DNA from: an uncultured Streptococcus sp.
GTDB lineage: Bacteria; Bacillota; Bacilli; Lactobacillales; Streptococcaceae
Length of the DNA: 64,000 nucleotides
Direction: 5' to 3' (one strand)
Assembly: GCF_934229725.1 (NCBI RefSeq)
Contig: NZ_CAKQDX010000010.1
Part shown: positions 4,553 through 41,490 of the stretch, piece after piece
Position numbering within the stretch: the first letter of the stretch is position 1
How the letters are laid out: every line of letters begins with the position of its first letter
Translations under genes and position numbers: made by a program
The notes under the pieces: generated by a model
The model's database searches: none
Seen by the model: the letters and a program-made list of their open reading frames with translations, nothing else
What the model was told of the DNA's origin: nothing

Positions 4553-7195
4553 ATGAAAAAAACAACTTATTGGAAAGATGTTTGGCGAACCTTTGTAGCT
4601 TCTAAAGGGCGTATGCTCTCTATTGCCTTGCTTATGGCACTCGGATCCTTTGCTTTGATTGGTCTTAAGGTCACTTCTCCTAATATGAAAACAACAGGAG
4701 AACACTTCTTCAAGGCCCATCAGACAGCTGACTTGAGCTTAATCAGTACTTACGGTATTAACAAAACCGATCAAGACCTTCTTAATACAGTCAAAAAGAA
4801 GAATGTTGACATTGAGTATGGTTATTTCAAAGATGCTGTTATCAAGGGCACAAATACGACATTTCGTATCTTCTCAAAACCTAAAAAAATCTCTACCTAT
4901 GACCTTGTTGAGGGGAAGCTTCCTAATAAGGATGGGGAGATTGCTCTTTCTTCAACCTATAAAGAAGAATACAGTGTAGGAGATAAGATTAATTTTTCTG
5001 AGCCAGTAGATAGCTCTGGGCAAAAACAGTTAAAGGAACAAACATATACCATTACTGGTTTTGTCAATTCCTCTGAACTCCTCTCCAAGAATCGTCTTGG
5101 TAATGCCAGTGCAGGTACCGGAAAACTAGACGGCTATGCCGTTGTGCCGAAGACAGATTTCAACGCTAATAACTACATGATTGCTCGAATCCGTTACCAG
5201 GATTTGGCAAATGTGAGTCCTTTTAGTAAGAAATATGCGGATAAAATTTCAGAAAGAAAAGCTGAACTCAAGGACCTCTTTAAAGACGAGCCTGAGAAAC
5301 GCTTAACTGAAATCAAGTCCCAAACTCAAGCTCAAATTACGCAAGGAAAACAAGAGCTTGAAGCAGCACGCACCCAGACTCAGCAGATGACAACAACCAA
5401 CGCTGCTGAGGCAGCAAGTGTAAAAGAGGCTACTACCAAGATTGAAGCTAAGCAAAAAGAACTCGAAGAAAGTCAAGCAATGCTGGACAATATGCCAGCC
5501 CCTAGCTACAAGTTCTACTCTCGTCGAGAAATTCCGGGTTCAGATGGGTATGTTGCTTACGAGAGTAACATCAACATCATCCATGATGTCAGCAACATCT
5601 TCCCTGTAGCCCTCTACTTTATGGCAGCCTTAGTTACCTTTGTAACCATGGGACGCTTTGTTGAAGAAGAACGAGGAAAAGCCGGTATCCTTAATGCACT
5701 GGGGTATAACAATTCACGTATTATCCACAAATTCGTCATTTATGGATTAATTACTAGTATTGCTGGTACAGCTGCAGGGGTTATTACAGGACATACTCTA
5801 CTTCCAGTACTCATTCACAACACTTATAAGAACGATTTGCAACTACCTGCTTTTGAGTTGCACTTCTACTTAGGGCTTACCCTAATCGCCTTTCTTTTAG
5901 GGCTCTTATCCGCTGTACTTCCTGCCTATGCGGTTGCTAAGAAAGAACTCTGGGAAAAACCTTCCCAACTGCTCCTTCCAAAGCCACCTCGTGCAGGAGC
6001 TAAGATTGTCCTAGAGCGCATTACACCTCTTTGGAGACGTCTTAGTTTCAAAGAAAAAGTTACCATGCGTAATATTTTCCGCTATAAACAACGGATGTTT
6101 ATGACCCTCTTTGGAGTCGCAGGCTCTATCGCTCTGCTCTTCGCAGGTTTAGGAATTCGTTCTTCCGTATCTAATCTTAACCAGCAACAGTTTGAAGACA
6201 TCATTCACTATGATATGATTGTCGCTAAACAACCGAATACATCAAGTGCCTTTGATGAGCAACTCACAAAGCTCCTTGATAGCAAAGACGTCAAAGAATA
6301 CTTGAATATTCATTTTGAAACCTTACAAAAAATTGCTGGTAACAATAAGGATACCCAAGAAATCTCGACGATTGTCTTTAACGACCATGATGAGAAAATC
6401 ATTAATAGTTACGTTAGCATGAGAGACCGAGCACATAACAAAACGCTTAAATTATCTAATGATGGAGCTATTATCTCTGAAAAAATGGCCAAACTCCTTA
6501 ACCTCAAGGTTGGCGATACCATTACTGTACAAAACAGTCAGGAAGAATCCGTCAAGATTAAAATTGCTGGTATCACAGAAATGTACATGGGACATTTCCT
6601 CTTTATGAATGCTAGCTACTATCAAAAAGCCTTTGGTACACCTTCGGTGAATAATGCCAATCTCGTCAGTCTGGCTGAACCTACCAAGCAAAATGTGGAA
6701 AACATGGCAGCTAAATTCATCAACTTGCCAAATGTTTACGGCGTTGTTCAAAACAACAACCTCAAGTTGCAAATCAGCACCATGGTCAATTCCTTAACGC
6801 AAGTTATTGGTATCTTGATTACCGTTTCCATTCTTCTTGCTGTGGTTGTCCTTTACAATCTGACCAACATCAATGTCTCTGAACGTATCCACGAGCTCTC
6901 AACCGTTAAGGTTCTTGGTTTCTACAATAATGAAGTATCCCTCTACATCTATCGTGAAACCATTTATCTATCTATTATCGGAATCTTCGTCGGATTTGGT
7001 CTTGGACAGGCACTTCACCAATATATGGTAAGCATTATCCCACCAGATCGTATCATGTTTGATCCATCTATTGGACTTGCTACCTACCTTTTACCAGCTG
7101 TTCTCATTGTCTTAATCCTTATTATCCTCGGCTTCGTTGTTAATAACCGCCTAGCCAAGCTTAATATGCTCGAAGCTCTAAGTTCAGTTGAATAA
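4553..7195 (+). CDS. ABC transporter permease with two FtsX domains and a long extracytoplasmic coiled-coil insert (MacB-like)
   Basis: 880 aa. Multiple TM helices at N- and C-terminal ends (FtsX-like blocks ending ...LEALSSVE). Central coiled coil rich in Q/E/K. Operon partner of the ATPase. Confidence 0.85.
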   Translation: MKKTTYWKDVWRTFVASKGRMLSIALLMALGSFALIGLKVTSPNMKTTGEHFFKAHQTADLSLISTYGINKTDQDLLNTVKKKNVDIEYGYFKDAVIKGTNTTFRIFSKPKKISTYDLVEGKLPNKDGEIALSSTYKEEYSVGDKINFSEPVDSSGQKQLKEQTYTITGFVNSSELLSKNRLGNASAGTGKLDGYAVVPKTDFNANNYMIARIRYQDLANVSPFSKKYADKISERKAELKDLFKDEPEKRLTEIKSQTQAQITQGKQELEAARTQTQQMTTTNAAEAASVKEATTKIEAKQKELEESQAMLDNMPAPSYKFYSRREIPGSDGYVAYESNINIIHDVSNIFPVALYFMAALVTFVTMGRFVEEERGKAGILNALGYNNSRIIHKFVIYGLITSIAGTAAGVITGHTLLPVLIHNTYKNDLQLPAFELHFYLGLTLIAFLLGLLSAVLPAYAVAKKELWEKPSQLLLPKPPRAGAKIVLERITPLWRRLSFKEKVTMRNIFRYKQRMFMTLFGVAGSIALLFAGLGIRSSVSNLNQQQFEDIIHYDMIVAKQPNTSSAFDEQLTKLLDSKDVKEYLNIHFETLQKIAGNNKDTQEISTIVFNDHDEKIINSYVSMRDRAHNKTLKLSNDGAIISEKMAKLLNLKVGDTITVQNSQEESVKIKIAGITEMYMGHFLFMNASYYQKAFGTPSVNNANLVSLAEPTKQNVENMAAKFINLPNVYGVVQNNNLKLQISTMVNSLTQVIGILITVSILLAVVVLYNLTNINVSERIHELSTVKVLGFYNNEVSLYIYRETIYLSIIGIFVGFGLGQALHQYMVSIIPPDRIMFDPSIGLATYLLPAVLIVLILIILGFVVNNRLAKLNMLEALSSVE

Positions 7196-7201
7196 GCTAA
7201 A

Positions 7202-7237
7202 AACGCCTGAGAAGTAATTCTCAAGCGTTTTTTTATA
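7202..7237. terminator. Bidirectional rho-independent terminator between the convergent ABC permease and MerR-like genes
   Basis: aaACGCCTGAGAAgtaaTTCTCAAGCGTttttttt: 11-bp stem with one mismatch, A-run before and T-run after. Confidence 0.8.
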
Positions 7238-7247
7238 TTCGATAAAT

Positions 7248-7985
7248 TTATTTCGTTTTAGTCTTAGCCAACTCCAAACAGTAGGTCTTAACATGACAAT
7301 GAGGGCAAGTCAACTTACGAGTCCTAGGTGTATGTCCAGAAATGGCAAACTCTTTAAAACTTGGATCAAAGGTCCTATGACAATTAGGACAAAGGTATTC
7401 AAACTGATTTCTATAGTGAAACATCACTAAATTCACTACTATAATATAAGCAGGACAGACAACAAACAAACCTCTAGGATCCTTAAAATAATAAATGACT
7501 ATCAGCAGGGCTATGATATAAAGAAGACTCGCTAGACTGATGCTCCCAAATATTCTCAACTGCAAATGACGCCATGATTTTTGATTTTCCATAAGACGTG
7601 AAATGTCTGACAAATCTTCCAACGAAAGTTGATGTCGTTTAGCAGTTGCTTTTTGCAAGTGACGGGCACGTTTTAGTTTGACCTCTATTTCCTCTGAAGA
7701 CTTTTCCAAGCTCTCGATTTGATCTGTCAACAAAAGCTCTAAAACCTGTTCCCTATTCTCCTCTTGCAAGAGTTTTTTGATTTGATTAATTGAGAAATCC
7801 AAATCTCTTAAGAAACAAATGACTTGCAGGCGTTCCAAATCTGATTCGTGATAGATTCTCCGACCACCTTCTGTGACTTCAGATGGCGTCAAAATACCAC
7901 GTTGATCATAGTACTGGACAGTCCTAACAGACACCTCTGCTGCTTTAGCCAACTCTCCTGTTGAAAACTGCGACATCTCAGTCAC
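7248..7985 (-). CDS. MerR-family transcriptional regulator with C-terminal transmembrane segments and a CxxC...CxxC zinc ribbon
   Basis: N-terminus FSTGELAKAAEVSVRTVQYYDQRGILTPSEVTEGGRRIYHESDLERLQVICFLRDL is a canonical MerR HTH. Coiled-coil linker. Two hydrophobic helices (ISLASLLYIIALLIVIYYF, FVVCPAYIIVVNLVMF). Then CPNCH...CPHCH. Confidence 0.75.
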   Translation of the reverse strand: MTEMSQFSTGELAKAAEVSVRTVQYYDQRGILTPSEVTEGGRRIYHESDLERLQVICFLRDLDFSINQIKKLLQEENREQVLELLLTDQIESLEKSSEEIEVKLKRARHLQKATAKRHQLSLEDLSDISRLMENQKSWRHLQLRIFGSISLASLLYIIALLIVIYYFKDPRGLFVVCPAYIIVVNLVMFHYRNQFEYLCPNCHRTFDPSFKEFAISGHTPRTRKLTCPHCHVKTYCLELAKTKTK

Positions 7986-8150
7986 CTCCTTTTAAGATTT
8001 TCCATCAAAGGAGGACCTTGGCCACCCTTGATACCTAGATTCTACCTTATAACGCAAGGTGACAAGCAAGCCCTAACCCTAAAGGATTTTCACTTCTTAC
8101 AGAAAAAGTTAGTCATCACTCTTTACAGCCTTTACAGCTCCTGTAAAGCT

Positions 8151-19788: not shown

Positions 19789-21894
19789 TTATCTAGCATC
19801 TTTTTCTTTGATAACCAAGACACCATCTTCCATATCAGCTTCCAGGTGTTTAGCATCAAGGTTATCCAAGTGGAAGTCTGTGACTTTGTCACGGATTTGT
19901 TGTTCAACCACACGACGGAGTGGACGAACACCCATGACTTCATCGTAGCCTTCTTCAGTCATGTACTCTTTTGCAGCTTCGCTAACTGCCAAGTCAATTT
20001 CTTTCTTAGAAAGGGTCTTATTGACATCTACCAACATCAAATCAACAATCTTAGAAAGGTTTTCCTTGCTCAAGTGTGAGAATTCAATCACAGCATTGAA
20101 ACGGTTCAAGAATTCTGGACGGAAGTAAGGTTTCAAACGATCCAAGAGTTCTGGTTTGTCCGCATCATCTGTCAAGTTAGCTTCATAACCAAAGCCAGCG
20201 TTTGAAGTTGCGATAATGACAGTGTTCTTGAAGTTTACAGTGTTACCTTGACCATCAGTCAAACGGCCATCATCCAAAACTTGAAGGAGAAGGGTGATGA
20301 CTTGAGGGTCTGCCTTTTCAATTTCATCAAGAAGGATGATTGAATAAGGGTTACGGCGAACACGTTCTGTCAAGGTATTGCTATTGTCATCATAACCAAC
20401 ATAACCAGCTGTTGTACCAATCAATTTAGAAACGGCTGTGCGGTCACTGTATTCTGACATGTCCAAACGGATGATAGCATCTTTTGTACCGAACATATCA
20501 AGGGCCAATTGTTTAGCCAACTCAGTTTTACCAACACCAGTTGGTCCTACAAAGAGGAAGCTACCAATTGGGCGGTTACCTTCATCGAATCCTGCACGGT
20601 TACGACGGATGGCACGTGCCACTGCTTCAACGGCCTTATCTTGACCGATAACCTTAGTTTGCAAACGGTGACCCATATCTTTCAAACGTTCGATATCAGT
20701 TGCACCCATTTGAGATACTGGAATACCAGTCATACGTTCTACAGATTCAGCCACATCATTTACGGTCGCAGTCACCTTGTGATCTTCTGCATGGTTAGCA
20801 ATTTTCTTTTCAAGTTTTTCAATACGAACCTTAGCATTTAGGGCTGCTTCGTAATCTTCTTTAGCAGCTGCAGCTTCTTGTTTAGCTTTTTCTTCTTCGA
20901 TTTCACGTTCAACAGCATTGACATCAGTTACTGGATGTTGTGCTGCCAAGTGAGCTGCTGTCACATCCACGAGGTCAATAGCCTTATCTGGCAAGCTACG
21001 TTGTGGAATGTATTGTACTGAGAAATCAACCGCTGCTTTCAAGACATCATCTGGCAAGATAACATTGTGGTGTTTTTCATAAAGATCACGGATACCTTGG
21101 AGAATCTTGAAAGTATCTTCAGCAGAAGGAGCATTGACCTTAACTTCGTTGAAACGACGAGCTAGGGCAGCGTTCTTCAAGATAGTGTTACGGTATTCAT
21201 CTTGAGTTGTTGCACCAATAACTGTCAATTCCCCACGTGAAAGAGCAGGTTTCAAGATATCAGCAAGACCTTTAGATCCTTGACCATCGCCAGTGCTTCC
21301 GGCACCAAGAATTTGGTGGATTTCATCGAAGAAGAGGATAATGTTTCCAGCTTCTTTGACTTCGTTTACCAAGTTTTGAATATTTTCTTCAAAGCTACCA
21401 CGGTATTGCGTACCAGCTTCGAGTCCAGAAATATCGATTGAGATGATTTCTTTGTTCTTGATGGCAGCTGGGACATCACCATTAACGATGGCTTGTGCCA
21501 AACCTTCAACTACGGCTGTTTTACCAACACCAGCATCCCCGACAAGGACTGGGTTGTTCTTGGTACGACGAGCCAAGATTTCGCAAGCTTCTTGGATTTC
21601 TTTGTTACGTCCAATGACAGGATCCAATTTACCTTCACGAGCTTCTTCAGTCAAGTTACGACCAAGTTTAGCAAGGATACCATCTTGTTTAGGTCCTTTA
21701 GCTTGTTGTTGAGTTGGGTTCACTGCTTCACCTTCATTACCAGGCAATTGACCTGTTTGACGGTAAATCGCAAATTCTTCAGGTGTCACTTCACGACCAT
21801 TAATCATGTAACGACGGTTTTCTGAACGGTAACCACCCATGTTACCCATCAATTGATTGAAAAGATCATCCATATTATTAAAGTTGTTGTTCAT
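19789..21894 (-). CDS. clpL: ATP-dependent Clp protease ATP-binding subunit ClpL (AAA+ chaperone)
   Basis: 701 aa. N-terminus [22 protein letters not shown] typical of ClpL. Two AAA+ modules ([15 protein letters not shown] and [15 protein letters not shown]alker A motifs). Confidence 0.95.
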
Positions 21895-29709: not shown

Positions 29710-30236
29710 TAAATTCCTTTGTCGAAGGTCATAGGACCATAAGCTTTTTCAATCTTTTTCCACATGCGGCGTTCACGCCAACGGTTAAACTTGGTCACCC
29801 AAGAATCAGACTTCACCAAAGGCTTAACCAAAATCGAGCGAATACCTGCTCGGTGGCTGGCCCTAATGTCAGTCATGAGCTGGTCGCCCACCATTACAAC
29901 CTCTTCACGGTTAAAGTGATAGCGCTCAATCGCTTCATTAATCCCCTTGGTAAAAGGTTTCATGGCGCGGCTCACAAAGTCCACATGAAAATTAGCAACC
30001 GCACGTTCGACACGGTCGTGTTTGTTATTAGAGACCACAACCACTGGGATGTCAGCCTCCGTCATCTCATCCAACCAAGCACGTAGCTCAAGCGTTCCAT
30101 CAGGATTGTTCCAAGCAATCAAGGTATTGTCCAAATCAACCAAGACGGCACGAATACCGTGTTCACGTAGCTGGTCAGGTTTCAAATCATAAACAGCCTC
30201 CACCATAAAATGGGGCCTGTAATCGTCTATACTCAT
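29709..30236 (-). CDS. yqeG: YqeG-family HAD phosphatase
   Basis: HAD motif I LVDLDNTL. 175 aa. Immediately upstream of yqeH, overlapping it by 1 nt. Confidence 0.85.
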   Translation of the reverse strand: MSIDDYRPHFMVEAVYDLKPDQLREHGIRAVLVDLDNTLIAWNNPDGTLELRAWLDEMTEADIPVVVVSNNKHDRVERAVANFHVDFVSRAMKPFTKGINEAIERYHFNREEVVMVGDQLMTDIRASHRAGIRSILVKPLVKSDSWVTKFNRWRERRMWKKIEKAYGPMTFDKGI

Positions 30237-30372
30237 TTTTTCTCCAAAATGTTAGTTTACCTCTTATTCTACCATATTTTTAAGGTTTATGTGTGGGACT
30301 TAAGTCCTATTTTTAAGAACAGCCCATACAAGACAATAAGGAAAGAGAGCCAGCAATCACTGAACTCTCCTC

Positions 30373-31290
30373 TTATCTTTGAATTTTTTCTTGTTTTTTA
30401 AGAGCAACTAAATCCTTAAGCGAAATGATGATGACAGCAAAAACAATTAAAAACATTCCAAGCACATCAATGGCAAAGAAGCGGTCTCCCATAATTAATA
30501 CGGTCAAAATGACCGATGCTACGGGTTCTACCGAAGCCAAGAGACTCCCTTTGACAGCTCCAACCATGGTTGTCCCCTTAAGGAAAACGGTGTAAGCAAA
30601 GACTGTCCCAATGAAGACCAATCCAAAAAGTGCTAAGAGATTTCCACCAGTCAAAGAAAGCTTATACTTCCAGGCTTGGATAGCAATCGGAAAGATTAAA
30701 CCACCGAGCAACAGGCCTAAACCAATGACAATCAAACTGCCCCATTTTTCAATAGCCTTAGCAGGCAATAAGATATAAATTGCATAGGTCACCGCCGAAA
30801 AGAGACCCCAGAACAAGCCCAGAGGTGTAATCGCCAGCTCCCTTATCTGACCATGCGTTGCGATGGTAAAGGTTCCCACAATAGCCATGATAATAGCCAC
30901 TAGCTCTGCTGCTGTTGGGAACCTACGATATTTTGCACATACAAAAGCCAGGATGGTAACTGGGGTGACATACTGCAAGACCGTCGCTGTCCCAGCATTA
31001 GTGTATTGAATAGCACTAAGATAGGCGTACTGATTTAGCACCAGACCAAAGAGTCCAAATAAGGCGATACTTACTAAGGTTTTTCTATCTTTAATAGCTT
31101 GTACTAATTTGTCTCGCTGCCTAAAAAAGACCGAAGCCGTTAGTAAAATACCAGACAGAAGCAAACGTAAACTCGTCAAAAGATTGACATTAACACCATG
31201 AGCCATTAGGTATTGACCAGAAACTCCTGAAAATCCCCAGGCAATTCCCGCTGTCAATACCATCAAGCTCCCTTTTAGTTGTTTAGACAT
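30373..31290 (-). CDS. DMT-superfamily (EamA-like) transporter
   Basis: 305-aa protein with about 10 TM helices and two EamA-like halves. Confidence 0.75.
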   Translation of the reverse strand: MSKQLKGSLMVLTAGIAWGFSGVSGQYLMAHGVNVNLLTSLRLLLSGILLTASVFFRQRDKLVQAIKDRKTLVSIALFGLFGLVLNQYAYLSAIQYTNAGTATVLQYVTPVTILAFVCAKYRRFPTAAELVAIIMAIVGTFTIATHGQIRELAITPLGLFWGLFSAVTYAIYILLPAKAIEKWGSLIVIGLGLLLGGLIFPIAIQAWKYKLSLTGGNLLALFGLVFIGTVFAYTVFLKGTTMVGAVKGSLLASVEPVASVILTVLIMGDRFFAIDVLGMFLIVFAVIIISLKDLVALKKQEKIQR

Positions 31291-31365
31291 GTGTTTTCCT
31301 CGATTATGATAATGCTTAATTATTATATCACAGAGTGGATAAGGTAAGCGGTTACTCCATAAAAC

Positions 31366-31749
31366 TTAAGCGGTTTTTCTTGAGGAATTTTCAAGCCACC
31401 AACCGACAATCCAGCCAAAGACTAAAAGATAATTTTCAAGAGCACCCATGGCGTTGACTGAGTGATGATGTTGAAGATAGCTAAGGAAATGATTAGTCCC
31501 AATCCCAAGGCCTCCAATAATCAAAGCTATCAGTACAGCTCTCAGATAAAACCAATCGTACTTGAGATTCACGGCAAGAAGGATGATTAGAACTGCCACG
31601 TTCCAGATACCAATCTCCCTCTGCCAACCAACTGAAATGCAGTACCCCGAGTGACTTCCCATATAGGTTGGGAAAAATAGCTGAAAAATAATAGCACCAG
31701 TCATGGCGAGAATGACGAGGATAAATAGGACTCTTAAGAATTTGTTCAT
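31366..31749 (-). CDS. Small polytopic membrane protein, hypothetical
   Basis: 127 aa with 3-4 TM helices. No recognisable motif. Confidence 0.5.
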   Translation of the reverse strand: MNKFLRVLFILVILAMTGAIIFQLFFPTYMGSHSGYCISVGWQREIGIWNVAVLIILLAVNLKYDWFYLRAVLIALIIGGLGIGTNHFLSYLQHHHSVNAMGALENYLLVFGWIVGWWLENSSRKTA

Positions 31750-31860
31750 GAGGTTGCTCCTGTTTAAAAGATGCTTTATTGAATACCACTAGTATAACAA
31801 AAAACCTAAGTACAACCTAGGTCTCTGAAACCCGTTATAATCTGTCTAAAGAAGACCTTA

Positions 31861-33144
31861 CTATAAACTTGTTCGTTGATCATTAGTACAATAGTTTCCA
31901 ACATAACTCAAGATTTTGGATTTCCAAGGATTACTAATCGCTTTTTCGAAATCCTTTCTTTTAAGTCCCATAGATTTTACAAAAAAATCATCAAATACAT
32001 TTTTAGGCGTAGCAGAATTCAATAACTGTGGTTCAACTTCTCCATTAATAAATGGTTTAAAGATAAGAGAACCTTCTTCGATTTTTAAATCCTCTTCTTT
32101 CTCTATACCATATAATTTGTCACGATATAAAACTCCTTGAAATTGAATACTATTGTCAGACTTATTTAACTTAAATATAAAATCAAAATCTTTAGGATTT
32201 TCGGTCGTCTTGATTATATATTTGTTAATATTCTTGGTAACAAAAACATATTCATATAACATCTGTATTCCGAAAAACAAAAACATTGATATTCCAAATG
32301 CAATTAAAGAAGGAATAATAAAACCTGAAAAATTTTTTGGATAACCTAATTCAAAATTAAAATCCTTATTCCAAAACTTGAATGTGAAAGGATGTTCCTT
32401 AGATAATAAAGTATAATAGACTCTAAGTGCTATTAGGTAGATAAACCATATTATTTTAAAACATGTTTCAAAATAATCATAAACTGGTGTTGTTTCTATT
32501 TTAGATCCATAAAGAAATTGGTTTTGGGTTACAACAAATTCTTTTAAATATGGTAAAAGTAATGGAAGAAACCAAACTAGGATAGTTATTGCACTTTCTG
32601 ATATTTTTCCAGTAGTTGAATCAAGAGAAATGTAAAAGACAAATAAATCAAAAACAAAGAAGGTCGTTACAAAAAATATCAACCCTAAAATAAATCCATC
32701 AAACACAAATTTCGATAATTGATTATCGATTTTTTGGGAAATTGTTTTTCTCTTATAGAGATAACTAAATCCATACATAGTTACTAAAAACAATATTAAC
32801 GAAATAATGACACTGAAATTGCTTTTATGAAAATTAAAAACAACTAAAAAAATAGTAGCAAAAACTTCGAAGAAAAACAAAAACTCAATAAATAAAAATA
32901 AAGCCCTAAATAAACCTATAAAACATTTTTCTATTATCTTTTTATCAGCTAGAAACTGTGATTTGCTATAACAAATCTGATAAAGGTAATAAATTGATGA
33001 TATCAAAACACTTAGAAAAATCCACAGACATAAAATAACATTAAAGTTTAAATTAAAATAATATACTACAACACTTAAAATAAGAAACGAAGTGACCAAC
33101 ACGATTTCAGGGTCAAGGTCAAAATTTTCTAGAAACTTTTTCAT
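31861..33144 (-). CDS. AT-rich polytopic membrane protein with C-terminal soluble domain, hypothetical (likely horizontally acquired)
   Basis: 427 aa from the ATG at 33144 (RBS GGAGGA). About 8 hydrophobic helices in the first 300 aa, very Phe/Ile/Leu/Lys-rich. C-terminal ~130 aa hydrophilic. Markedly lower GC than the flanking gatCAB. Confidence 0.55.
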   Translation of the reverse strand: MKKFLENFDLDPEIVLVTSFLILSVVVYYFNLNFNVILCLWIFLSVLISSIYYLYQICYSKSQFLADKKIIEKCFIGLFRALFLFIEFLFFFEVFATIFLVVFNFHKSNFSVIISLILFLVTMYGFSYLYKRKTISQKIDNQLSKFVFDGFILGLIFFVTTFFVFDLFVFYISLDSTTGKISESAITILVWFLPLLLPYLKEFVVTQNQFLYGSKIETTPVYDYFETCFKIIWFIYLIALRVYYTLLSKEHPFTFKFWNKDFNFELGYPKNFSGFIIPSLIAFGISMFLFFGIQMLYEYVFVTKNINKYIIKTTENPKDFDFIFKLNKSDNSIQFQGVLYRDKLYGIEKEEDLKIEEGSLIFKPFINGEVEPQLLNSATPKNVFDDFFVKSMGLKRKDFEKAISNPWKSKILSYVGNYCTNDQRTSL

Positions 33145-33182
33145 ATAAAAATCCTCCGTTCCTGAGTATACCAAAAAAAACT

Positions 33183-33235
33183 AGTCTATATTCTATTTTC
33201 AACAAAGAATGAGACTAGTTTTTATATTAGAAAAA
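33183..33235 (-). terminator. Putative terminator after gatB (long imperfect hairpin)
   Basis: AACTAGTCT...AGACTAGTT inverted repeat followed on the minus strand by TTTTTTTTGG. The next gene's RBS follows directly. Confidence 0.45.
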
Positions 33236-33240
33236 ATGTA

Positions 33241-34683
33241 TTACTCTTCTTTCAACTTCGCCAATTCTTGGGCAAGTAACTTGAGGGCTACTTGTGGGTT
33301 GGCTTGGCCTTTGGTTGCTTTCATGAGGAAACCTGTGAAGGCCTTGTCAGCGTTACGTTTACCTGACTTGAAGTCGGCTACGGCTGCTTCATTGTCTGCA
33401 AAGACTTGGTGGATGATTGGAATCAAGACTTCAGGGTCTGAAATCTGTACCAAGCCAGCTTTTTCGACGTATTCACGCGCACCGCCACCGTTTTTCGCCA
33501 AGTGAACGAAGACTTTCTTGGCAATCTTAGATGAGATGGTGCCATCTTCGATGATGGCAATCATTTCTACCAAGTTTTCTGGTGTCAACTTGATTTCTTC
33601 AAGCGTTTTACCTTCTGCATTCAAGAATTGAGCGACTTCACCTTGGATCCAGTTAGACACTTGTTTGGCATCTCCACCAAGGGCCACGGCTGCTTCAAAG
33701 AAGTCAGAAGTGACTTTCGTCGCTGTCAATTGGTTGGCATCATAGTCAGACAAGCCAAGCTCTGCTACATAGCGAGCACGACGGTCTTTTGGAAACTCTG
33801 GCAACTCTGTACGCATTTCCTCAATCCACTCATCTGAGATTTCAAACAAGGGAAGATCTGGTTCTGGGAAGTATCGGTAATCCGCTGCTCCTTCTTTAAC
33901 ACGCATGAGAATAGTGCTCTTGTGGGCTTCATCGTAACGGCGTGTTTCTTGACGAATGACACCACCTGAGCGCAAGATTTTCGCTTGGCGTTGCACCTCA
34001 TACTCAAGACCTTTACGGACGTTTGAGAAGGAGTTCAAGTTTTTCAACTCTGTCTTGGTACCAAATTCCTCTTGACCGTATGGGCGAAGAGAAATGTTGG
34101 CATCCACACGCATGGATCCTTCTTCCATCTTCACATCAGAAATGCCTGTGTACTGGATGACTTCTTTCAATGCTGTCAAATAAGCATAGGCTTCTTCAGG
34201 AGAACGCATATCAGCTTCAGATACGATTTCAATCAATGGCACCCCTTGACGGTTAAGGTCTACATAAGAGAAACCGTCTGGGCTGTGGGTATTCTTACCG
34301 GCATCTTCTTCCAAGTGGGCACGTTCAATCCCGATTTTCTTAGTTGAGCCGTCTTCCAATTGCACTTCAATCCAACCCTTGTAGCCGATAGGCTCATCAA
34401 ATTGCGAAATTTGGTAAGCCTTTGGATTATCAGGGTAGAAATAGTTCTTACGGTCAAAGTGCATGTGCTGGTGGATATCCATATTCAAGGCCAAAGCAGC
34501 CTTGATCCCAGCGTCCACAACACCCTTGTTCAAGACAGGAAGGACCCCTGGGAAAGACCAGTCAATTACATTAGTATTAGCATTTTGCTCATTCCCAAAG
34601 TGAGCAGAGGTTGGTGAGAAAATTTTTGAATTTGTATTCAATTCAACGTGGACTTCAAGTCCGATGACTGTTTCAAAGTTCAT
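33241..34683 (-). CDS. gatB: Asp-tRNA(Asn)/Glu-tRNA(Gln) amidotransferase subunit B
   Basis: 480 aa. [22 protein letters not shown]... canonical GatB N-terminus. Confidence 0.95.
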
Positions 34684-36149
34684 TAATTGTCACCTCCAAA
34701 AATCACGGGTTGTTGCTTGTGATAATCCGTTGTTGCTTCAAAAGCAGCTGCAGCTTGATAGATCGTTTCTTCAGAATACTTAGGACCAATCAACTGCAAA
34801 CCAACTGGAAGTCCTTGCGCAAAACCTGCAGGAATCGAAATTCCTGGAAGACCTGCCAAGTTGACTGGGATGGTCAAGAGGTCTGCTAAGTACATAGCAA
34901 CCGGATCATGGTTGAGCGAATCCAAATCAAAGGCCACGCTTGGAGCTGTTGGACCAAGGATGAGGTCGTAATCCGCAAAGACTTTTTCAAAATCTTGGAT
35001 AATAAGGGTACGGACTTGACCAGCTTTCTTGTAGTAAGCATCGTAGTAACCAGATGACAAACTAAAGGTACCCAGCATGATACGGCGTTTAACCTCATCA
35101 CCAAAGCCTTGGCTACGAGTGTTCACATAGATGTCATCCAGGTTCTTGGCATCTTCCGCACGGAAACCATAGCGAATCCCGTCGAAACGTTGCAAGTTTG
35201 AAGAAGCTTCAGATGAAGCGATGATGTAGTAGACAGCAACCCCATATTTAGAATGAGGCAGGCTGACTTCTTCGACAGTTGCTCCCAATTTTTCAAAATG
35301 TTTGGCCGCATTTAGGATGGTTTCTTTGACTTCTGGATCAATTCCTTCCCCAAGGTATTCTTTCGGAAGGGCAATCTTCATTCCTTTAATGTCTTGACCA
35401 ATCTTAGAAGTAAAGTCAGCTACACGAACAGGTGCAGAAGTTGAATCTTTAGTATCTTCACTGGCAATCACATTGAGCAATTGGGCATTTTCCTTGACGG
35501 TCTGTGAGAAGGTACCAATCTGGTCAAGTGAGTTACCAAAAGCAATGAGACCAAATCGTGAAACAGTTCCGTAGGTTGGTTTAAGACCAACAATCCCGTT
35601 AAAAGCTGCTGGCTGGCGGATAGAACCACCTGTGTCTGAACCAAGTGACAAGCGGACTTGTCCTGAAGCGACAGAAGCTGCTGAACCACTAGAAGATCCA
35701 CCAGGAACCTTGCTGTGGTCCCAAGCATTTTTGGCTGGTCCATAGTAAGATGTTTCACCAGATCCACCCATAGCAAATTCATCCATGTTGGTCTTCCCGA
35801 TGACAATCATATCTTTGGCTTTCGCATTGGCAACCGCTGTCGCATCAAAGATTGGCTCGTAGTTATAAAGCATTTTTGAAGCCGCAGTCGTCAAGATACC
35901 ATCAGTAGAGATGTTGTCTTTGACTGCGAGTGGAATCCCTGACATGAGGTTGTCGGCATCGATTCCTTTTTCGTCAATGGCCTTGGCTTGCGCAAGGGCA
36001 GCTTCTTCTGCTACTGTCACAAAGGCATTGACTGCTTCTTCACGCGCCTTGATATCGTCAAGCGTTGCTTGGGTCAATTCGGTTGCTGAAATTTCCTTAG
36101 AGACAAGGAGGTCGTGCAACTCTTCAATGGTTTTATGGTTGAATGACAT
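34683..36149 (-). CDS. gatA: Asp-tRNA(Asn)/Glu-tRNA(Gln) amidotransferase subunit A
   Basis: 488 aa. Amidase signature [14 protein letters not shown]. Confidence 0.95.
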
Positions 36150-36451
36150 TAGGCATCTCCTCCATCTTCTAGGATAGCTGGTACCTTGATGTAGTAGTTA
36201 TCTTTTTCAGGTACATTTTTAAACAAACGGTCACGGTCCGTCCCTTTTTCAGCAACATCCGGACGCAATACAGTCTTGCGGTCAGCCATGGTCGTTGTTG
36301 GAGCAACACCCGTTGTGTCCACTTCTTCCAACAATTCCACCATGTCAACAATTTTAGACAAGGTTGTCGCAAACTCAGCTGTCTCTTCTGGAGAGAATTT
36401 CAATTTTGAAAGATTGGCAACGTGGGTTACCTCTTCTTGCGTAATTTTCAT
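36149..36451 (-). CDS. gatC: Asp-tRNA(Asn)/Glu-tRNA(Gln) amidotransferase subunit C
   Basis: [41 protein letters not shown]... typical GatC. ATG at 36451 has RBS AAAGGAAG. Overlaps gatA by 1 nt. Confidence 0.9.
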
Positions 36452-36602: not shown

Positions 36603-38075
36603 TTAGTCTATGGCTACCAAGAGCTTTCTCCAAGCTTCTAGAATTTCTGGCTTCAGGTATTTTTTTGCCAAATCGTACGAAGCTTGATGCATGGACTCAA
36701 GATTGCTTTCTAAGACTGCTACAATCTTATCCGCCATGTCAGAAACAAGCAAATCCTCATCCATGGTCTCATCATAAGGAACCAAATAACCGTTCTTTCC
36801 GTCTTTGATAAAGGTCGGATTCCCATAACGGGCATCAAAACCAACCAAGGCAAGACCAGCTCCAACTGCTTCCATCAGGGTCAAACCAAAGGTCTCCCAC
36901 TGAGAGGTCGTCACATAAAGTTCATATTGTGGATAAATCTGTTGCAAGTTCGCATGACCTCTTAGATGGATATAACTACCTGCTCCAAGATCATCAATCA
37001 GGTGTTCCAGATTTTCTTGTTCGACACCCTTACCATAGATATCAAACTGAAGATCAGGCACTTTGTCATGGGCCAGGGCAACCGCTCTTACGGCTAGATC
37101 CAGCCGTTTGCGTGGGTCTAATCGAGAGGCCGTTATCAAACTAAGGGGCTTTCTCTGACCATCTGGATAACTAAGACTATCCAAGTGACCTACAGGTAGG
37201 GCATAGATAGTAGCATTGTTTAATCCTTGTTTGTGAAGAGTAGTCTCTAGTACTGCTTTTTGTGCTTCAGTCGCTGTGATAAAGAAATCAAACCGCTCGG
37301 CATACTTGAAGATATAGTAATACTCATAGTAGAGTCCACCATTTTTAAACTCATGCTCAGAATGGAAAACAAAACCTAATTTTGCAGGCGAATGAAGCTC
37401 TAAAATTGGTCGTGCAAATGCAATCAAGGCAGCCCTATCTAATAACAGGGTGTCTTCTCGTGTCAAGGAAAGGCGAGCCAAGAAGCGACGCATGACTTCC
37501 GTTTGTGACACTAAAATCTCATTTTCCAACCTATACAACCAAGTAGCTCCCTGCTTGAGTTCTTCAAAAGCAATATGACCATCTTGGTTATGGAAACTTC
37601 TTCTGATGAGGATACCCTTTTCAAAGTATTCTGTAACTAGTTTACGGGTTCCATACCACTCACGCTTCAACAAAATACCATTGGTAATGTAATCGACATA
37701 GCGGACACACCCCTTTTTATAAGGGTCCATTTTAAATATGAGTCTACTTCCATCTGAAAACTCATAAAGGAACTCTGTTTCATCTTGCCTCTTCAAATCC
37801 AGTCGAGTTAACTGGAACTGCTGTTGCAGGGCTCCCACTGTCAACGACGGAATATAACCGTCTTGGTCGGTAAAACAGACATAGGCATGTAGGAATTCTT
37901 CATAGCGATGTCCCAGAGAGAGATAATAATCCAATTTATAGGGTTGAGGCCACGTTGTGAAAACAAATTTAGCAGGCGCATTTAATTCACGTAGCATTAT
38001 GGCTCTGGATGCTTGGGCCACATCAACACCATTAGGCTCATAGCCCACCAGTAGGTTAAAGGTGTAAATCGTCAT
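36603..38075 (-). CDS. GtfA-like GT4 glycosyltransferase (O-GlcNAc transferase of serine-rich-repeat adhesins; GtfE-like paralog)
   Basis: 490 aa. MTIYTFNLLVGYEPNGVDVAQASRAI N-terminus resembles GtfA. GT4 E-x7-E motif ETFGLTLMEAVGAG. Overlaps the GtfB-like gene by 4 nt. Confidence 0.7.
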   Translation of the reverse strand: MTIYTFNLLVGYEPNGVDVAQASRAIMLRELNAPAKFVFTTWPQPYKLDYYLSLGHRYEEFLHAYVCFTDQDGYIPSLTVGALQQQFQLTRLDLKRQDETEFLYEFSDGSRLIFKMDPYKKGCVRYVDYITNGILLKREWYGTRKLVTEYFEKGILIRRSFHNQDGHIAFEELKQGATWLYRLENEILVSQTEVMRRFLARLSLTREDTLLLDRAALIAFARPILELHSPAKLGFVFHSEHEFKNGGLYYEYYYIFKYAERFDFFITATEAQKAVLETTLHKQGLNNATIYALPVGHLDSLSYPDGQRKPLSLITASRLDPRKRLDLAVRAVALAHDKVPDLQFDIYGKGVEQENLEHLIDDLGAGSYIHLRGHANLQQIYPQYELYVTTSQWETFGLTLMEAVGAGLALVGFDARYGNPTFIKDGKNGYLVPYDETMDEDLLVSDMADKIVAVLESNLESMHQASYDLAKKYLKPEILEAWRKLLVAID

Positions 38076-39346
38076 CTTTGTCCCCTTTCCAATTGACTAA
38101 AGAAAGCCATGATTTCTGCCCTCTCAGCCAGTTTTAAAGCCTCTTTTTGAACCTTAAGCGCTCTAGGATAGCCATCTGGTTCCTGCAAAAGTTGGCGGAT
38201 ACTTTGCCCCACTTCCTCCACCGAAGCATAAACAGTTGGTAGGGCCTTATAGTATTGACGGTGAACCGTTGAAGCCAAACCATACAGTAGCTGCTCATTG
38301 GCAATGGCCTCAAGCGTCACATCAGAAACTTCACTGCCATAATTCAAGTCTAAATAAATAGAGCATTCCCTTAGTAATTCTCGATATTTCTCACGACTAA
38401 TTCCAGGATAAAGATGGACATTTGTCTTTTCCTCCAAGCAAATCAATTTAGGCCCCATACTAGTTAGGGCTGCAATGTGAAAGGCAATATCCGGAAATTT
38501 ATCAACTAAACCAGCTAGTCCCTCAATATTTTCCGAAGCAGTCATGACCATAGCTTGAGGAACAAAAGAATGAGCCCCTTCTTGTTCTGCACCAGAGAGA
38601 TAAATCAATCCCGGTCTACGCTCCTCTTGAGGATAATAATTGGTAATCAAAATATGGCTTAACTGATTTTGGAGATACTCAAGATTATCATGGCTACCAG
38701 AACAATAGACCAGTCGTTCAGATGGTAACAATGGAAGCAAATTAGAATCCATACAAATGATAGTTTCGTCTGACTTCAGAACCTGCCCAAGAACAAACTT
38801 GATTACATCATCCTTGCCTGAGAAAATCGTATCTCTTCCCACAGAACCCTGATGAATCAAATAATCTTCTTGGATATAATGTAATAAGACTTCCTCTTGC
38901 GCACGATTAAAGTAAATATCCATGAGGGCTCGCCCCTCATCATCTAAAAGACGTTGCTTGGTCCGCCACCCATAACGGTTATAGTCATCAATAGCGACAA
39001 CTTTTTCCCCTTGACCAAACCACTCAACCTGCTTGACCGTACGCTCTCTAACATTTTCACGAAAAATAATATTAGCTCGACGATCCTTGCCATCAAAAAG
39101 ATAAGTCGTAATTCCCAAAGTCCAAAGCTCCCAATAAAGAGGAACTGACAAATCGTTAAAAAAGAGAGGTTTGCCTTGATAATCATCCTCAGAGGAATAA
39201 CTAAATGACGATGCTAAACTAATAGTGTTCTCATCTACATCCGTTTCAAAATTAGTGTAGAACACTCGTGATTTCATCCCCAAAGAGTCTAACAATCTTC
39301 TCAGTTTATCCGTCGCTTGACTGGGTTCTTGTGCAATAATGAGCAT
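38072..39346 (-). CDS. GtfB-like glycosylation accessory protein (catalytically degenerate GT partner of GtfA; GtfF-like)
   Basis: 424 aa. No E-x7-E motif. Length and pairing with a GtfA-like gene. Here it lies upstream of its GtfA-like partner. Confidence 0.6.
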   Translation of the reverse strand: MLIIAQEPSQATDKLRRLLDSLGMKSRVFYTNFETDVDENTISLASSFSYSSEDDYQGKPLFFNDLSVPLYWELWTLGITTYLFDGKDRRANIIFRENVRERTVKQVEWFGQGEKVVAIDDYNRYGWRTKQRLLDDEGRALMDIYFNRAQEEVLLHYIQEDYLIHQGSVGRDTIFSGKDDVIKFVLGQVLKSDETIICMDSNLLPLLPSERLVYCSGSHDNLEYLQNQLSHILITNYYPQEERRPGLIYLSGAEQEGAHSFVPQAMVMTASENIEGLAGLVDKFPDIAFHIAALTSMGPKLICLEEKTNVHLYPGISREKYRELLRECSIYLDLNYGSEVSDVTLEAIANEQLLYGLASTVHRQYYKALPTVYASVEEVGQSIRQLLQEPDGYPRALKVQKEALKLAERAEIMAFFSQLERGQR

Positions 39347-39396
39347 AGTTATCCTTTCTAACTATTTCAAGCAATAAATAGCTTTAAGCTATCCCT

Positions 39397-40278
39397 TTAT
39401 TGCTCCAGAAATCTCAAGTTGACCTTCGCTGTCTGATAGGTCTCCGTATCTTGAAGATTGGCTTCTTCCAATTTTTCAATGGCACGCTTCAAACGAGTCT
39501 TATAAATGTAACGATGCCATGTTAAATCATAACCCAACATGCCTAGCAGTGCTAATTTTTCATTTTTAGCTTCCATCTCATCTAAGACACGCTTTTCCGT
39601 CCAGACCTGCGACAAGGTATCCTTGCGCCCTACTCGATACCAGTAGATACATTTTTCAGTGTGAATCACACGATTAGCCTTTAACAAGAGCTTATACATA
39701 AGGAAGTTGTCTTCGACATTCTTTCCAACCGGAAAACGCAGGTCCTCAAATAAGGAGATTTTGTAGAGCTTCATCATGGCACAGGCCCAAGCCATATCTC
39801 TTGTCTCTTGAATAGCATCATGATCGATAATATCCCTTCCCTCATAAAGGGTTTCAGAATAATCATCTTCTGTCAGCTTAATCAAAAACTTACTCGTACT
39901 ATCGTTAAACAAATTATAATTGCCAGTAGAAACATCTGCCTCATACTTTTTCAGCTGATCATACAAGGTCTCCACATAATCTTCCGTTACCCAATCATCT
40001 GGGTCTACAAAAGTAATATAGTCGCCTGTAGCCAAGTCAATCCCCGTATTTCGAGCTGCAGATAAGCCACCATTAACTTGTCGGACATAGCGAATACGTG
40101 AATCTTGCTTGAAGAATTCCTTGCAAATGGCTTCTGAATGATCAGGAGAACCATCATTAACAAGAATGATTTCAAGATGAGGATAGGTCTGGTTAACTAT
40201 CGTTTCCAAACACTTCCGTAAATAAGCTTCCACATTATAAATGGGAATAACAATACTAACTACTTCTTTATTTTCCAT
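39397..40278 (-). CDS. GT2-family glycosyltransferase
   Basis: N-terminus VSIVIPIYNVEAYLRKCLETIVNQTY...VNDGS and DxD motif FVDPDD. Confidence 0.85.
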   Translation of the reverse strand: MENKEVVSIVIPIYNVEAYLRKCLETIVNQTYPHLEIILVNDGSPDHSEAICKEFFKQDSRIRYVRQVNGGLSAARNTGIDLATGDYITFVDPDDWVTEDYVETLYDQLKKYEADVSTGNYNLFNDSTSKFLIKLTEDDYSETLYEGRDIIDHDAIQETRDMAWACAMMKLYKISLFEDLRFPVGKNVEDNFLMYKLLLKANRVIHTEKCIYWYRVGRKDTLSQVWTEKRVLDEMEAKNEKLALLGMLGYDLTWHRYIYKTRLKRAIEKLEEANLQDTETYQTAKVNLRFLEQ

Positions 40279-40281
40279 TGA

Positions 40282-41490
40282 TTATCTCCCAATCGTCTCT
40301 AGGTATTCTCGAACAGCTGTCACCATCTCATCTACTTGGTCATCCTTAAAGACTTGATTCTCTCCAGTTTGATCATGATTGGTCCCTTCAAAAGAGAAAA
40401 CAGGAAGCCCCAACTGATGAATCGTTTCTGTAATATGATCAACCTCGTCAAATGGATTAATATCCAAATAGAAATCTATTTTTTCCAAAACCTTGCGACT
40501 GGTTAGAGGGTCAAATGAGGGATAGAGGATAAGATTGGGATACTGCTCCAATTGCACTAGGTTAAAACCAAAATGAGAGTGAGCTAAGACATGAAAAGCC
40601 ACATCGGGAAGGGCTTGTAACAAGCCTTCCAACTCAAAAATATCTGCCGTATTGGTATAAATAGCCGTATGATAAGAAAAATCTCCCACTAGATCACTAA
40701 AGTTGAGCTTTACGGCTGGCTTTCTCAATAAGATATCTTCCCATGATAAGGCATAATAAAACCACCAGATATCCCTGAAACGATTAAAACGTTTAGCAGT
40801 CCAAGGCTTGTTGTAAGAGGTGTAATGGATAACTGCTGGTACCCCTTTAAAGGTATCATACCAATCCAGATCACCGTATATGTACTGGTCCTTATCAGAA
40901 CCTACTTGAAGATTATAAGTCCAAGGAAGTCTGAGCCAAGCATCCTTAAAATACAAATTCAAGATTCCCTGATCGCCATAGACTTCTTGGTGATGTTTCT
41001 GCGTTAAATCAAAGAGAGATTCTGTTACCTTATGTTGACGCCACCAAGCAGTGTCAATAACCATCAAACCAGCATTGAAGCCTTCCGTCGTTGTTGGACA
41101 ATCCACTACTGCTCCAATACCAAGACCATTCAAATCTACCTCAAAAAGCGGTGACAAATCTTGTGTAAAAATCATATCACTATCTAAATAGAGAACACGA
41201 TCTTCTTGAACAAAGTCTGGAATCGCATAACGGAAGAAAGTCGCATAATGAATATGTGCACTCGGAAGCGAAAATGCTTTAAAACTTTCTGCAGATACTC
41301 GACAATTGACAACCTCCGATGCAATGGTTTCTAAACGACGATTCATAAGCGCAAACCATTCTGTTGGTAAATTCTCATTTAAGACATAGATTTTCCAATG
41401 TCCCTGATGGGCGCATAGAGACTTAAGAGCCACCTCTAACTTTTCCATGTAAGATAGGTCGGCTACAAATACAACTGATTTTTTATCCAT
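40282..41490 (-). CDS. GT8-family glycosyltransferase with C-terminal extension
   Basis: GT8 hallmarks FFRYAIPDF and DxD LYLDSDMIF. 402 aa. Confidence 0.8.
   Translation of the reverse strand: MDKKSVVFVADLSYMEKLEVALKSLCAHQGHWKIYVLNENLPTEWFALMNRRLETIASEVVNCRVSAESFKAFSLPSAHIHYATFFRYAIPDFVQEDRVLYLDSDMIFTQDLSPLFEVDLNGLGIGAVVDCPTTTEGFNAGLMVIDTAWWRQHKVTESLFDLTQKHHQEVYGDQGILNLYFKDAWLRLPWTYNLQVGSDKDQYIYGDLDWYDTFKGVPAVIHYTSYNKPWTAKRFNRFRDIWWFYYALSWEDILLRKPAVKLNFSDLVGDFSYHTAIYTNTADIFELEGLLQALPDVAFHVLAHSHFGFNLVQLEQYPNLILYPSFDPLTSRKVLEKIDFYLDINPFDEVDHITETIHQLGLPVFSFEGTNHDQTGENQVFKDDQVDEMVTAVREYLETIGR

Follow-up and report, generated by a model that had tools for sequence, protein, structure and literature searches.

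The 64,000-nucleotide stretch of DNA analyzed here (the window throughout) comes from an uncultured Streptococcus sp. (NCBI RefSeq assembly GCF_934229725.1, contig NZ_CAKQDX010000010.1), and the subject of this work is an orphan gene, called gene X below, that follows gatB, the last gene of the gatCAB operon. Gene X is a genuine protein-coding gene under selection, and the interval 31762-33235 that contains it is a self-contained one-gene cassette that is not part of the gatCAB operon. The slot occupied by this cassette is a site of general plasticity: true defence systems are found in it at times, but it is not a dedicated defence island. Judged by database searches, the gene is a lineage-restricted orphan of S. 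salivarius-group bacteria with no known family membership. Our tentative reading, which could well prove wrong, is that X is a membrane protein that by itself excludes phages or brings about abortive infection, or that it has a closely related role in self-protection. The gene and its cassette comprise the following parts, with coordinates given in the window; L numbers here and below denote loci or contigs used for comparison.

31861-33144, minus strand: orphan gene X, 427 amino acids (aa), eight transmembrane (TM) segments and a predicted cytoplasmic C-terminal domain of 134 aa
31762-33235, minus strand: variable cassette without counterpart in empty-site genomes (blastn breakpoints 33236 and 31761 against L013, L021, L019, and L012)
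33173-33223, minus strand: AU-rich hairpin then U8, terminator-like and cassette-borne (inverted repeat 12/12 nt; RNA fold -16.1 kcal/mol, z = -2.3)
33165-33173, minus strand: TGGTATACT, putative extended -10 promoter-like element for gene X (consensus match)
33152-33157, minus strand: GGAGGA ribosome-binding site (RBS) of gene X, 7 nt ahead of the ATG; GGAGG is kept in other alleles
32436-32660, minus strand: constrained core, codons 162-236 (TM6, the next loop, and the start of TM7), with invariant alignment columns and motifs ILVWFLPLLLPY and YDYFETCFKIIWFIYLIA
31959-32165, minus strand: variable module of the C-terminal domain, codons 327-395, with three discrete types, C1 here (pN/pS 0.6-1.1)
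31799-31826, minus strand: 3' hairpin and U-run, terminator-like, past gene X (sequence and RNA fold; conserved in X-bearing loci)
31791-31799, minus strand: TGTTATACT, extended -10-like element of the downstream 127-aa gene, shared with loci of the phosphotransferase system (PTS) type

Gene X runs on the minus strand, a correction to an earlier note on this DNA, from its ATG at 33144-33142 to its stop codon at 31863-31861 and begins 96 nt after the gatB stop. The form given by the listing of open reading frames (ORFs) is a TTG-extended version of 437 aa. That note had described a 427-aa, AT-rich, polytopic gene of foreign composition after gatCAB, and this description is borne out: the G+C content (GC) is 0.25 overall and 0.24-0.29 along the gene compared with 0.40-0.47 in the flanks, the gene is the lowest-GC kilobase within the window, and third-position GC is 0.21 compared with 0.40-0.51 in five neighboring genes. 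The residues Phe, Leu, Ile, and Lys make up 45% of the protein. Because random shuffles with the composition of X run for a mean of 11 codons and a maximum of 88 before a stop, and because the remaining five frames over the gene hold 23-47 stops each, the ORF is far beyond chance. The frame is intact in all 23 X loci that were fetched and in 8 of 10 metagenome copies among the contigs listed. The frameshifted copies in L048 and L078 were considered as pseudogenes and rejected, given that adjoining genes are fragmented too, which points to assembly indel errors.

The limits of the cassette were set by tblastn and blastn comparison with X-less genomes. The left breakpoint falls at window position 33236, 5 bp past the gatB stop, and homology comes back on the right at 31761, 12 bp ahead of the 127-aa gene. 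In the empty-site genomes L013 and L021, the native gatB terminator CCAGCCgaaaGGTTGG with its U-run folds at -28.8 kcal/mol, and the 127-aa gene begins about 98 bp past it. This native terminator is kept in the empty, PTS, alcohol dehydrogenase (ADH), DarTG, and 332-aa-orphan states of the slot and is absent from all X-bearing genomes. The hairpin upstream of X, which the earlier note took for the gatB terminator, is instead non-native, weaker (-16 vs -29 kcal/mol), and cassette-borne, and its distance to the ATG is about 31 nt in place of the 40 bp that had been given. The GGAGGA RBS named in that note is present, at 33157-33152. The absence of an obvious promoter has become doubtful, as TGGTATACT is placed between the U-run and the RBS and is conserved in all allele groups as an extended -10-like TG(G/A)TATACT (alleles of 50%, 72%, and 76% identity); a simple -35/-10 scan did not report this element. 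At the other end, the segment 31762-31827 with the terminator and the promoter of the next gene is common to DarTG-type and PTS-type occupants, and empty sites have TGTTAGACT in place of TGTTATACT. A single-gene AT-rich insertion is what these comparisons reveal, with empty sites in L013, L021, and 62 of the 105 informative metagenome contigs listed. The idea of an insertion within a housekeeping operon holds only as far as X adjoins gatCAB, since the gene is not within the operon and has its own hairpin, promoter-like element, RBS, and terminator. No integrase, tRNA, terminal direct or inverted repeats, or att sites were found at the cassette borders, and the sole tRNA in the window (13469-13555) is about 18 kb off. 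An Rfam search of window positions 30000-35000 gave no match. Inspection by eye upstream of gene X gave no convincing match to a ComR-box or cin-box, which were not searched further.

The alleles of X differ in a manner that sets the gene apart from its neighbors. They are 50-100% identical compared with 98-99.6% for GatA and GatB. Within the 72-100% group, dN/dS is 0.64-0.76 for X compared with 0.01-0.03 for gatA and gatB, while dS for X (0.09-0.24) is no larger than for gatA and gatB (0.14-0.40), and dN for X is 15-40 times that of the two genes. In comparisons with the 50% group, dS rises to about 0.9 and dN/dS falls to about 0.4. This variation is unevenly spread. In the core at codons 162-236, pN/pS is 0.04-0.30 (every pair tested gave a Fisher p no higher than 1e-3), and codons 177-206 have zero nonsynonymous change against a pS of 0.20. 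The last 30 codons (PWKSKILSYVGNYC) also have low pN/pS in most pairs. By contrast with the core, pN/pS at codons 16-73, 237-281, and 327-395 is about 0.6-1.8 (higher in two pairs with small counts) and nowhere differs significantly from 1; the near-neutral parts are the TM1-2 region, one external loop, and the central portion of the C-terminal domain. Such values support strong constraint on the core and, outside it, evolution that is either very relaxed or diversifying. Sliding windows had dN/dS above 1 at codons 16-73, 237-266, and 367-395, but the per-pair Fisher tests were all nonsignificant, and positive selection is therefore not claimed.

The C-terminal modules also vary against the rest of the protein. 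When they are set against membrane-domain groups A and B, all four of the combinations A-C2, A-C3, B-C2, and B-C3 are present, and X modules have therefore been exchanged by recombination. Compared with L022, the HAD protein is 100% and gatA 99.6% identical and X only 72%; allele type is decoupled from the relatedness of the flanks. This decoupling and the absence of mobility genes suggest that the conserved flanks serve as sites of homologous recombination by which cargo is swapped. Species of the S. salivarius group are naturally transformable.

The X protein is predicted to be an 8-TM membrane protein with both termini inside. Kyte-Doolittle analysis places hydrophobic segments at residues 14-32, 36-54, 73-102, 111-129, 151-169, 186-204, 229-247, and 275-293, in agreement with the eight or so segments described previously. 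The hydrophilic C-terminal domain of about 130 aa was likewise found as a charged tail of 134 aa with 20 Lys/Arg and 19 Asp/Glu. With the tail excluded, the loops carry 11 Lys+Arg inside compared with 6 outside, and this bias favors an N-in arrangement in which the C-terminal domain is cytoplasmic. The external loops predicted from this topology have 3, 8, 16, and 27 residues. Charged residues E13, R80, E87, D166, and R241 are invariant and stand in or at the edges of hydrophobic segments. A voltage-gated H+ channel, the single match in a profile search of the PDB (E = 0.88), was taken as noise.

The distribution of X is narrow. The family amounts to 34-36 clusters among 5.8 billion proteins, with complete members of 416-432 aa and some clusters truncated. 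The clusters are named solely "hypothetical protein", and nearly all are from S. salivarius, with two entries from metagenome-assembled genomes (MAGs) binned elsewhere. A phmmer search over 1.84 billion representatives returned one full-length X representative and fragments, and a hidden Markov model (HMM) profile search over the 5.8e9 proteins found no relatives beyond the X family. Two clusters that might have been distant relatives, P0041 and P0042, were rejected as copies of the 50% allele that are either chimeric or truncated. The six allele clusters that were looked up (P0003, P0005, P0010, P0015, P0016, and P0031) all have the gene at the same chromosomal site, and in all loci examined it has the same neighbors, namely gatCAB, the genes of the 127-aa protein and of EamA, and the yqeG-yqeH operon. 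A search of the literature by title and abstract gave nothing relevant on gene X or on a gatB-adjacent island, and a paper on S. thermophilus defence loci (PMC11514479) has no mention of gatB or gene X. Both the family and the slot appear to be previously undescribed in the literature searched.

The slot lies between two conserved anchors, which are listed here together with the other genes of the operon.

33241-34683, minus strand: gatB, last gene of gatCAB and left anchor of the slot (Pfam GatB_N/GatB_Yqey on orthologues; 98-99.4% aa identity across loci)
34683-36149, minus strand: gatA
about 36149-36451, minus strand: gatC
31366-31749, minus strand: 127-aa membrane protein, conserved right anchor (74-97% identity in every slot state)

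A search of representatives anchored on EamA, two genes downstream of X, gave 12 loci of the S. salivarius group: three with X, two empty, four with a PTS operon, one with an ADH, and two that are too short.

L022 (S. raffinosi): X, 72% allele
L011 (S. salivarius KSS6) and L015: X, 50% allele
L013 and L021: empty
L012 (S. vestibularis), L014, L017, and L018: operon of about 7 kb with GH1, PTS IIB/IIA/IIC, and a PRD regulator
L019: Zn-alcohol dehydrogenase, then a duplicated gatB 3' end
L016 and L020: too short to tell

Metagenomes were scanned with a 53-nt degenerate pattern of the gatB 3' end. The scan gave at least 120 contigs, an arbitrary sample, and 105 of those listed were informative; all slot counts refer to the matches listed.

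62/105: empty
20/105: GH1/PTS operon (beta-glucoside)
10/105 (about 10%): gene X
3/105: ISL3 transposase
3/105: 463-aa protein with coiled coil, TM segment, and PASTA domains
3/105: content unknown
1/105: 332-aa membrane orphan
1/105: Zn-alcohol dehydrogenase
1/105 (L063): DarT-HD and DarG (with an LPXTG protein)
1/105 (L107): Wadjet (JetD and the end of JetC)

The assignments of the two defence systems rest on PADLOC and Pfam matches (DarT 2.6e-38 and DarG 6.6e-57 in L063; JetD 1.5e-118 in L107), and it is through DarTG in the one contig and Wadjet in the other that the slot counts as a defence hotspot by context. Rather than being universally conserved at this position as a member of a transporter family, X occupies 10 of the 105 contigs listed and 3 of the 12 loci, and no transporter family in Pfam or NCBIfam matches it at E up to 10. 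A second class of left junction, in which a T-run and then CTAAT(A/G)ATA come right after the stop and the native terminator is lost, is found with all X alleles, the Wadjet locus, and one ISL3-associated occupant. These three kinds of cargo have no DNA in common beyond this junction motif of roughly 16 nt.

Assigning a function to X requires that several explanations be weighed. A role in conflict with phages or other invaders is suggested because X forms a stand-alone cassette with its own signals, low GC, occupancy of about 10% among the listed contigs, and restriction to one species group, and because it combines a conserved membrane core with a changing modular domain and occupies a slot in which other strains have DarTG or Wadjet. 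Under this reading, the variable cytoplasmic C-terminal domain would be a specificity or sensor module and the conserved 8-TM membrane core the working part, such that sensing of an invader-derived cue may alter membrane integrity or block DNA entry. A bolder form, which we regard as doubtful, would have X found a new single-polypeptide 8-TM membrane defence family, with the gatB slot as an S. salivarius-group hotspot for defence cargo maintained by natural transformation, C-modules of at least three recombining types that recognize phage or foreign-DNA cues, and a core that executes exclusion or abortive infection. The defence-type role proposed in the earlier note is plausible by context (DarT-HD/DarG in L063 and JetD in L107); no PADLOC match was found for X or for any of the 27 aligned members. 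A number of results weigh against a role in defence. At E up to 10, the X protein of the window matches nothing in Pfam, NCBIfam, PHROGs, or PADLOC; when all 27 aligned members were searched against Pfam and PADLOC, sub-threshold noise was all that appeared (e.g., ETX_MTX2 at 0.054 in five members); and known defence families in PADLOC-DB v2, Abi included, gave 0 matches at E up to 10 for X and the 27 members. The profile search of the PDB gave no relative, and AlphaFold2 on the shallow alignment gave models too poor to use (pLDDT 46.7 at full length, 46.6 when the C-terminal domain was modeled by itself). The searches that were run thus yield no homology or structural evidence for any function of X, and to our knowledge there is no known single-gene defence protein with an 8-TM architecture. 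The promoter of the gene is a consensus match, from which its expression is presumed. No window of X has significant positive selection, and the variable parts fit relaxed constraint. Finally, the commonest filled state of the slot among the contigs listed is metabolic, the GH1/PTS operon, and guilt by association is weak because the slot also carries such plainly metabolic cargo.

A rival explanation is that X is an immunity or resistance protein directed against a membrane-targeting bacteriocin or a contact-dependent toxin of competing streptococci, in which the core would shield or replace the target and the modules would vary along with the toxin. Bacteriocins are produced prolifically by S. 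salivarius, and X is strain-variable (about 10% of the sites listed), is diverse in its alleles with shuffled modules, and is a membrane protein as AT-rich as many orphan immunity genes. We nevertheless find this explanation rather unlikely: none of the loci examined has a bacteriocin, transporter, or toxin gene next to X, the immunity families CPBP/Abi (PF02517), EntA_Immun, and LanI/FEG in Pfam and NCBIfam do not match X, and the location of its most variable module in the predicted cytoplasmic domain is a poor fit to an extracellular toxin. An improbable but still serious candidate is a strain-specific envelope enzyme or permease (Wzy-, GT-C-, or acyltransferase-like, or an unrecognized transporter), with any effect on phage arising indirectly through receptor modification. 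Eight TM segments with the five invariant charged residues would suit such a protein, a glycosyltransferase cluster is found just upstream of gatCAB (36603-41490), the slot elsewhere holds sugar-utilization genes, and serotype-specific polytopic glycan enzymes are typically AT-rich and orphan-looking. Against it, models for Wzy_C, EpsG, Acyl_transf_3, GT-C, and transporters of any kind do not match X; GT-C and Wzy enzymes have large external loops and those of X are very short; no partner GT2 or flippase gene is present; and X is found in L001-L006 despite a GtfA remnant there, which makes it independent of the upstream cluster.

Two further explanations are much harder to reconcile with the data. 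That X is prophage or mobile-element cargo (a "moron") left by an element integrated at the gatB 3' end was also raised in the earlier note, and its very low GC, the T-run and CTAAT(A/G)ATA junction shared with Wadjet-bearing and ISL3-associated occupants, and the duplicated gatB 3' end in L019 are in keeping with it. The link to prophages, plasmids, and viral contigs did not materialize, however: tblastn of X against 50,697 phage records and 72,556 plasmids at E up to 1 found none, a scan of IMG/VR viral contigs found no copy, and there is no PHROG match. The borders lack an integrase, tRNA, and terminal repeats, all copies found are at one chromosomal site, and only the roughly 16-nt motif is shared with other cargos, so that we consider this origin very improbable. 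Scarcely more credence is due to a decaying or functionless foreign ORF whose high dN/dS reflects lost constraint. The whole-gene dN/dS, the large segments with pN/pS about 1, and the truncated database clusters would all be explained, but the frame is intact in those 23 loci across dS up to 0.9 despite a stop expected every ~11 codons, codons 177-206 are free of nonsynonymous change, purifying selection on the core is significant in every pair tested, and the RBS, -10 element, and terminators are conserved. The probability left over from these readings belongs to something else.

As orphan hotspot cargo and a candidate membrane conflict protein, X is a familiar kind of thing, and comparison with known systems helps to place it. 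The core defence hotspots of E. coli and Pseudomonas aeruginosa resemble the gatB slot in being fixed intergenic positions between housekeeping genes, with no integrase and with alternative unrelated cargos including DarTG, Wadjet, or nothing. The gatB slot differs in being small (one gene to about 7 kb) and in having metabolic PTS/GH1 genes as its commonest cargo, and its proposed mechanism of exchange is transformation with homologous recombination. Like the lactococcal and streptococcal Abi and superinfection-exclusion (Sie) proteins (AbiP, Sie2009, and Ltp), X is stand-alone with its own expression signals, has a GC well below that of the host, is strain-variable and membrane-associated, and has a narrow taxonomic range. 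Unlike them, X has eight TM segments instead of 0-2, is not on a plasmid or prophage, and has no similarity to any Abi/Sie model in PADLOC, Pfam, or PHROGs. RexB, KwaA of Kiwa, and the TM effectors of CBASS and retrons share the logic proposed for X of a membrane effector with a cytoplasmic sensing part, yet these have 2-4 TM segments and separate sensor genes, compared with one 8-TM polypeptide with no partner, and no homology to X. Wzy, GtrC-type/GT-C enzymes, and O-acetyltransferases are also AT-rich, polytopic, strain-divergent, and often unrecognizable by sequence, and they often affect phage adsorption. X departs from these enzymes in its lack of a Pfam match, its short external loops, its large soluble domain predicted to be cytoplasmic, its lack of a GT2 or flippase partner, and its position outside a polysaccharide cluster.

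At present, X is one of very many uncharacterized hotspot genes. If it proves to be a conflict protein, it would be a new single-gene membrane system with a distinct architecture and no detectable relative in 5.8 billion proteins. The bacterium that carries it is abundant as a commensal of the human mouth and gut and is closely related to S. thermophilus, a dairy species in which resistance to phage is of practical value. Should X instead modify the envelope or confer immunity, it would still represent modular allele shuffling at a fixed chromosomal site. Regardless of what X does, the slot from gatB to the 127-aa gene is a compact anchor that can be mined for further accessory functions.

Other occupants of the slot have features of their own, with positions given here in bases past the gatB stop in the sense of gatB. 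In L063 (305-2915), a 618-aa DarT with a C-terminal HD domain is followed by a 253-aa DarG-like macro-domain protein and then by a 624-aa LPXTG-anchored protein; this fusion of DarT to HD could represent an uncommon form of DarTG. L107 (2101-3574) has an inverted JetD (405 aa, GC 0.24) and a JetC-like end. The 332-aa protein of L032 (38-1036) has N-terminal hydrophobic segments and no Pfam or PADLOC match, and the 463-aa protein of L088 (292-1683; also in L141 and L148) has a coiled coil and a single TM segment in addition to three PASTA domains. In L019, the last 38 gatB codons are duplicated (7330-7443, 82% aa identity) downstream of the ADH insert, which suggests that the ADH cassette arrived together with the gatB 3' end by recombination.

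The right anchor, a small hydrophobic 127-aa protein with an HHH run, has no Pfam match, and an exact look-up found it not on record. Among empty-site contigs its identities fall into two ranges, 74-81% and 87-97%, which suggests that two species groups are represented. Between its gene and EamA there is another variable slot (window 31291-31365). This slot is about 80 bp here and about 1.3 kb in L011, L013, L015, L017, and L021 (about 6700-8000), where it holds a 347-aa Zn-dependent ADH, the same ADH as in the gatB slot of L019 and L096.

Farther out in the window, the glycosyltransferase cluster at 36603-41490 (minus strand), immediately upstream of gatC, comprises a GtfA-like GT4, a GtfB-like protein, a GT2, and a GT8 and resembles the glycosylation machinery of serine-rich-repeat proteins. 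In L001-L006, a GH1 gene and the GtfA remnant replace this cluster, and the upstream side of gatCAB is therefore also polymorphic. Other patches of low GC (0.31-0.33) are found at 1-2000 and 18001-20000. The former contains a gene for an ImmA/IrrE-type Peptidase_M78 protein (382-1104), and the latter contains a 183-aa orphan and a DUF4230 protein (18029-19231) that adjoin a gene for a ClpB/ClpC-like AAA+ ATPase (19789-21894).

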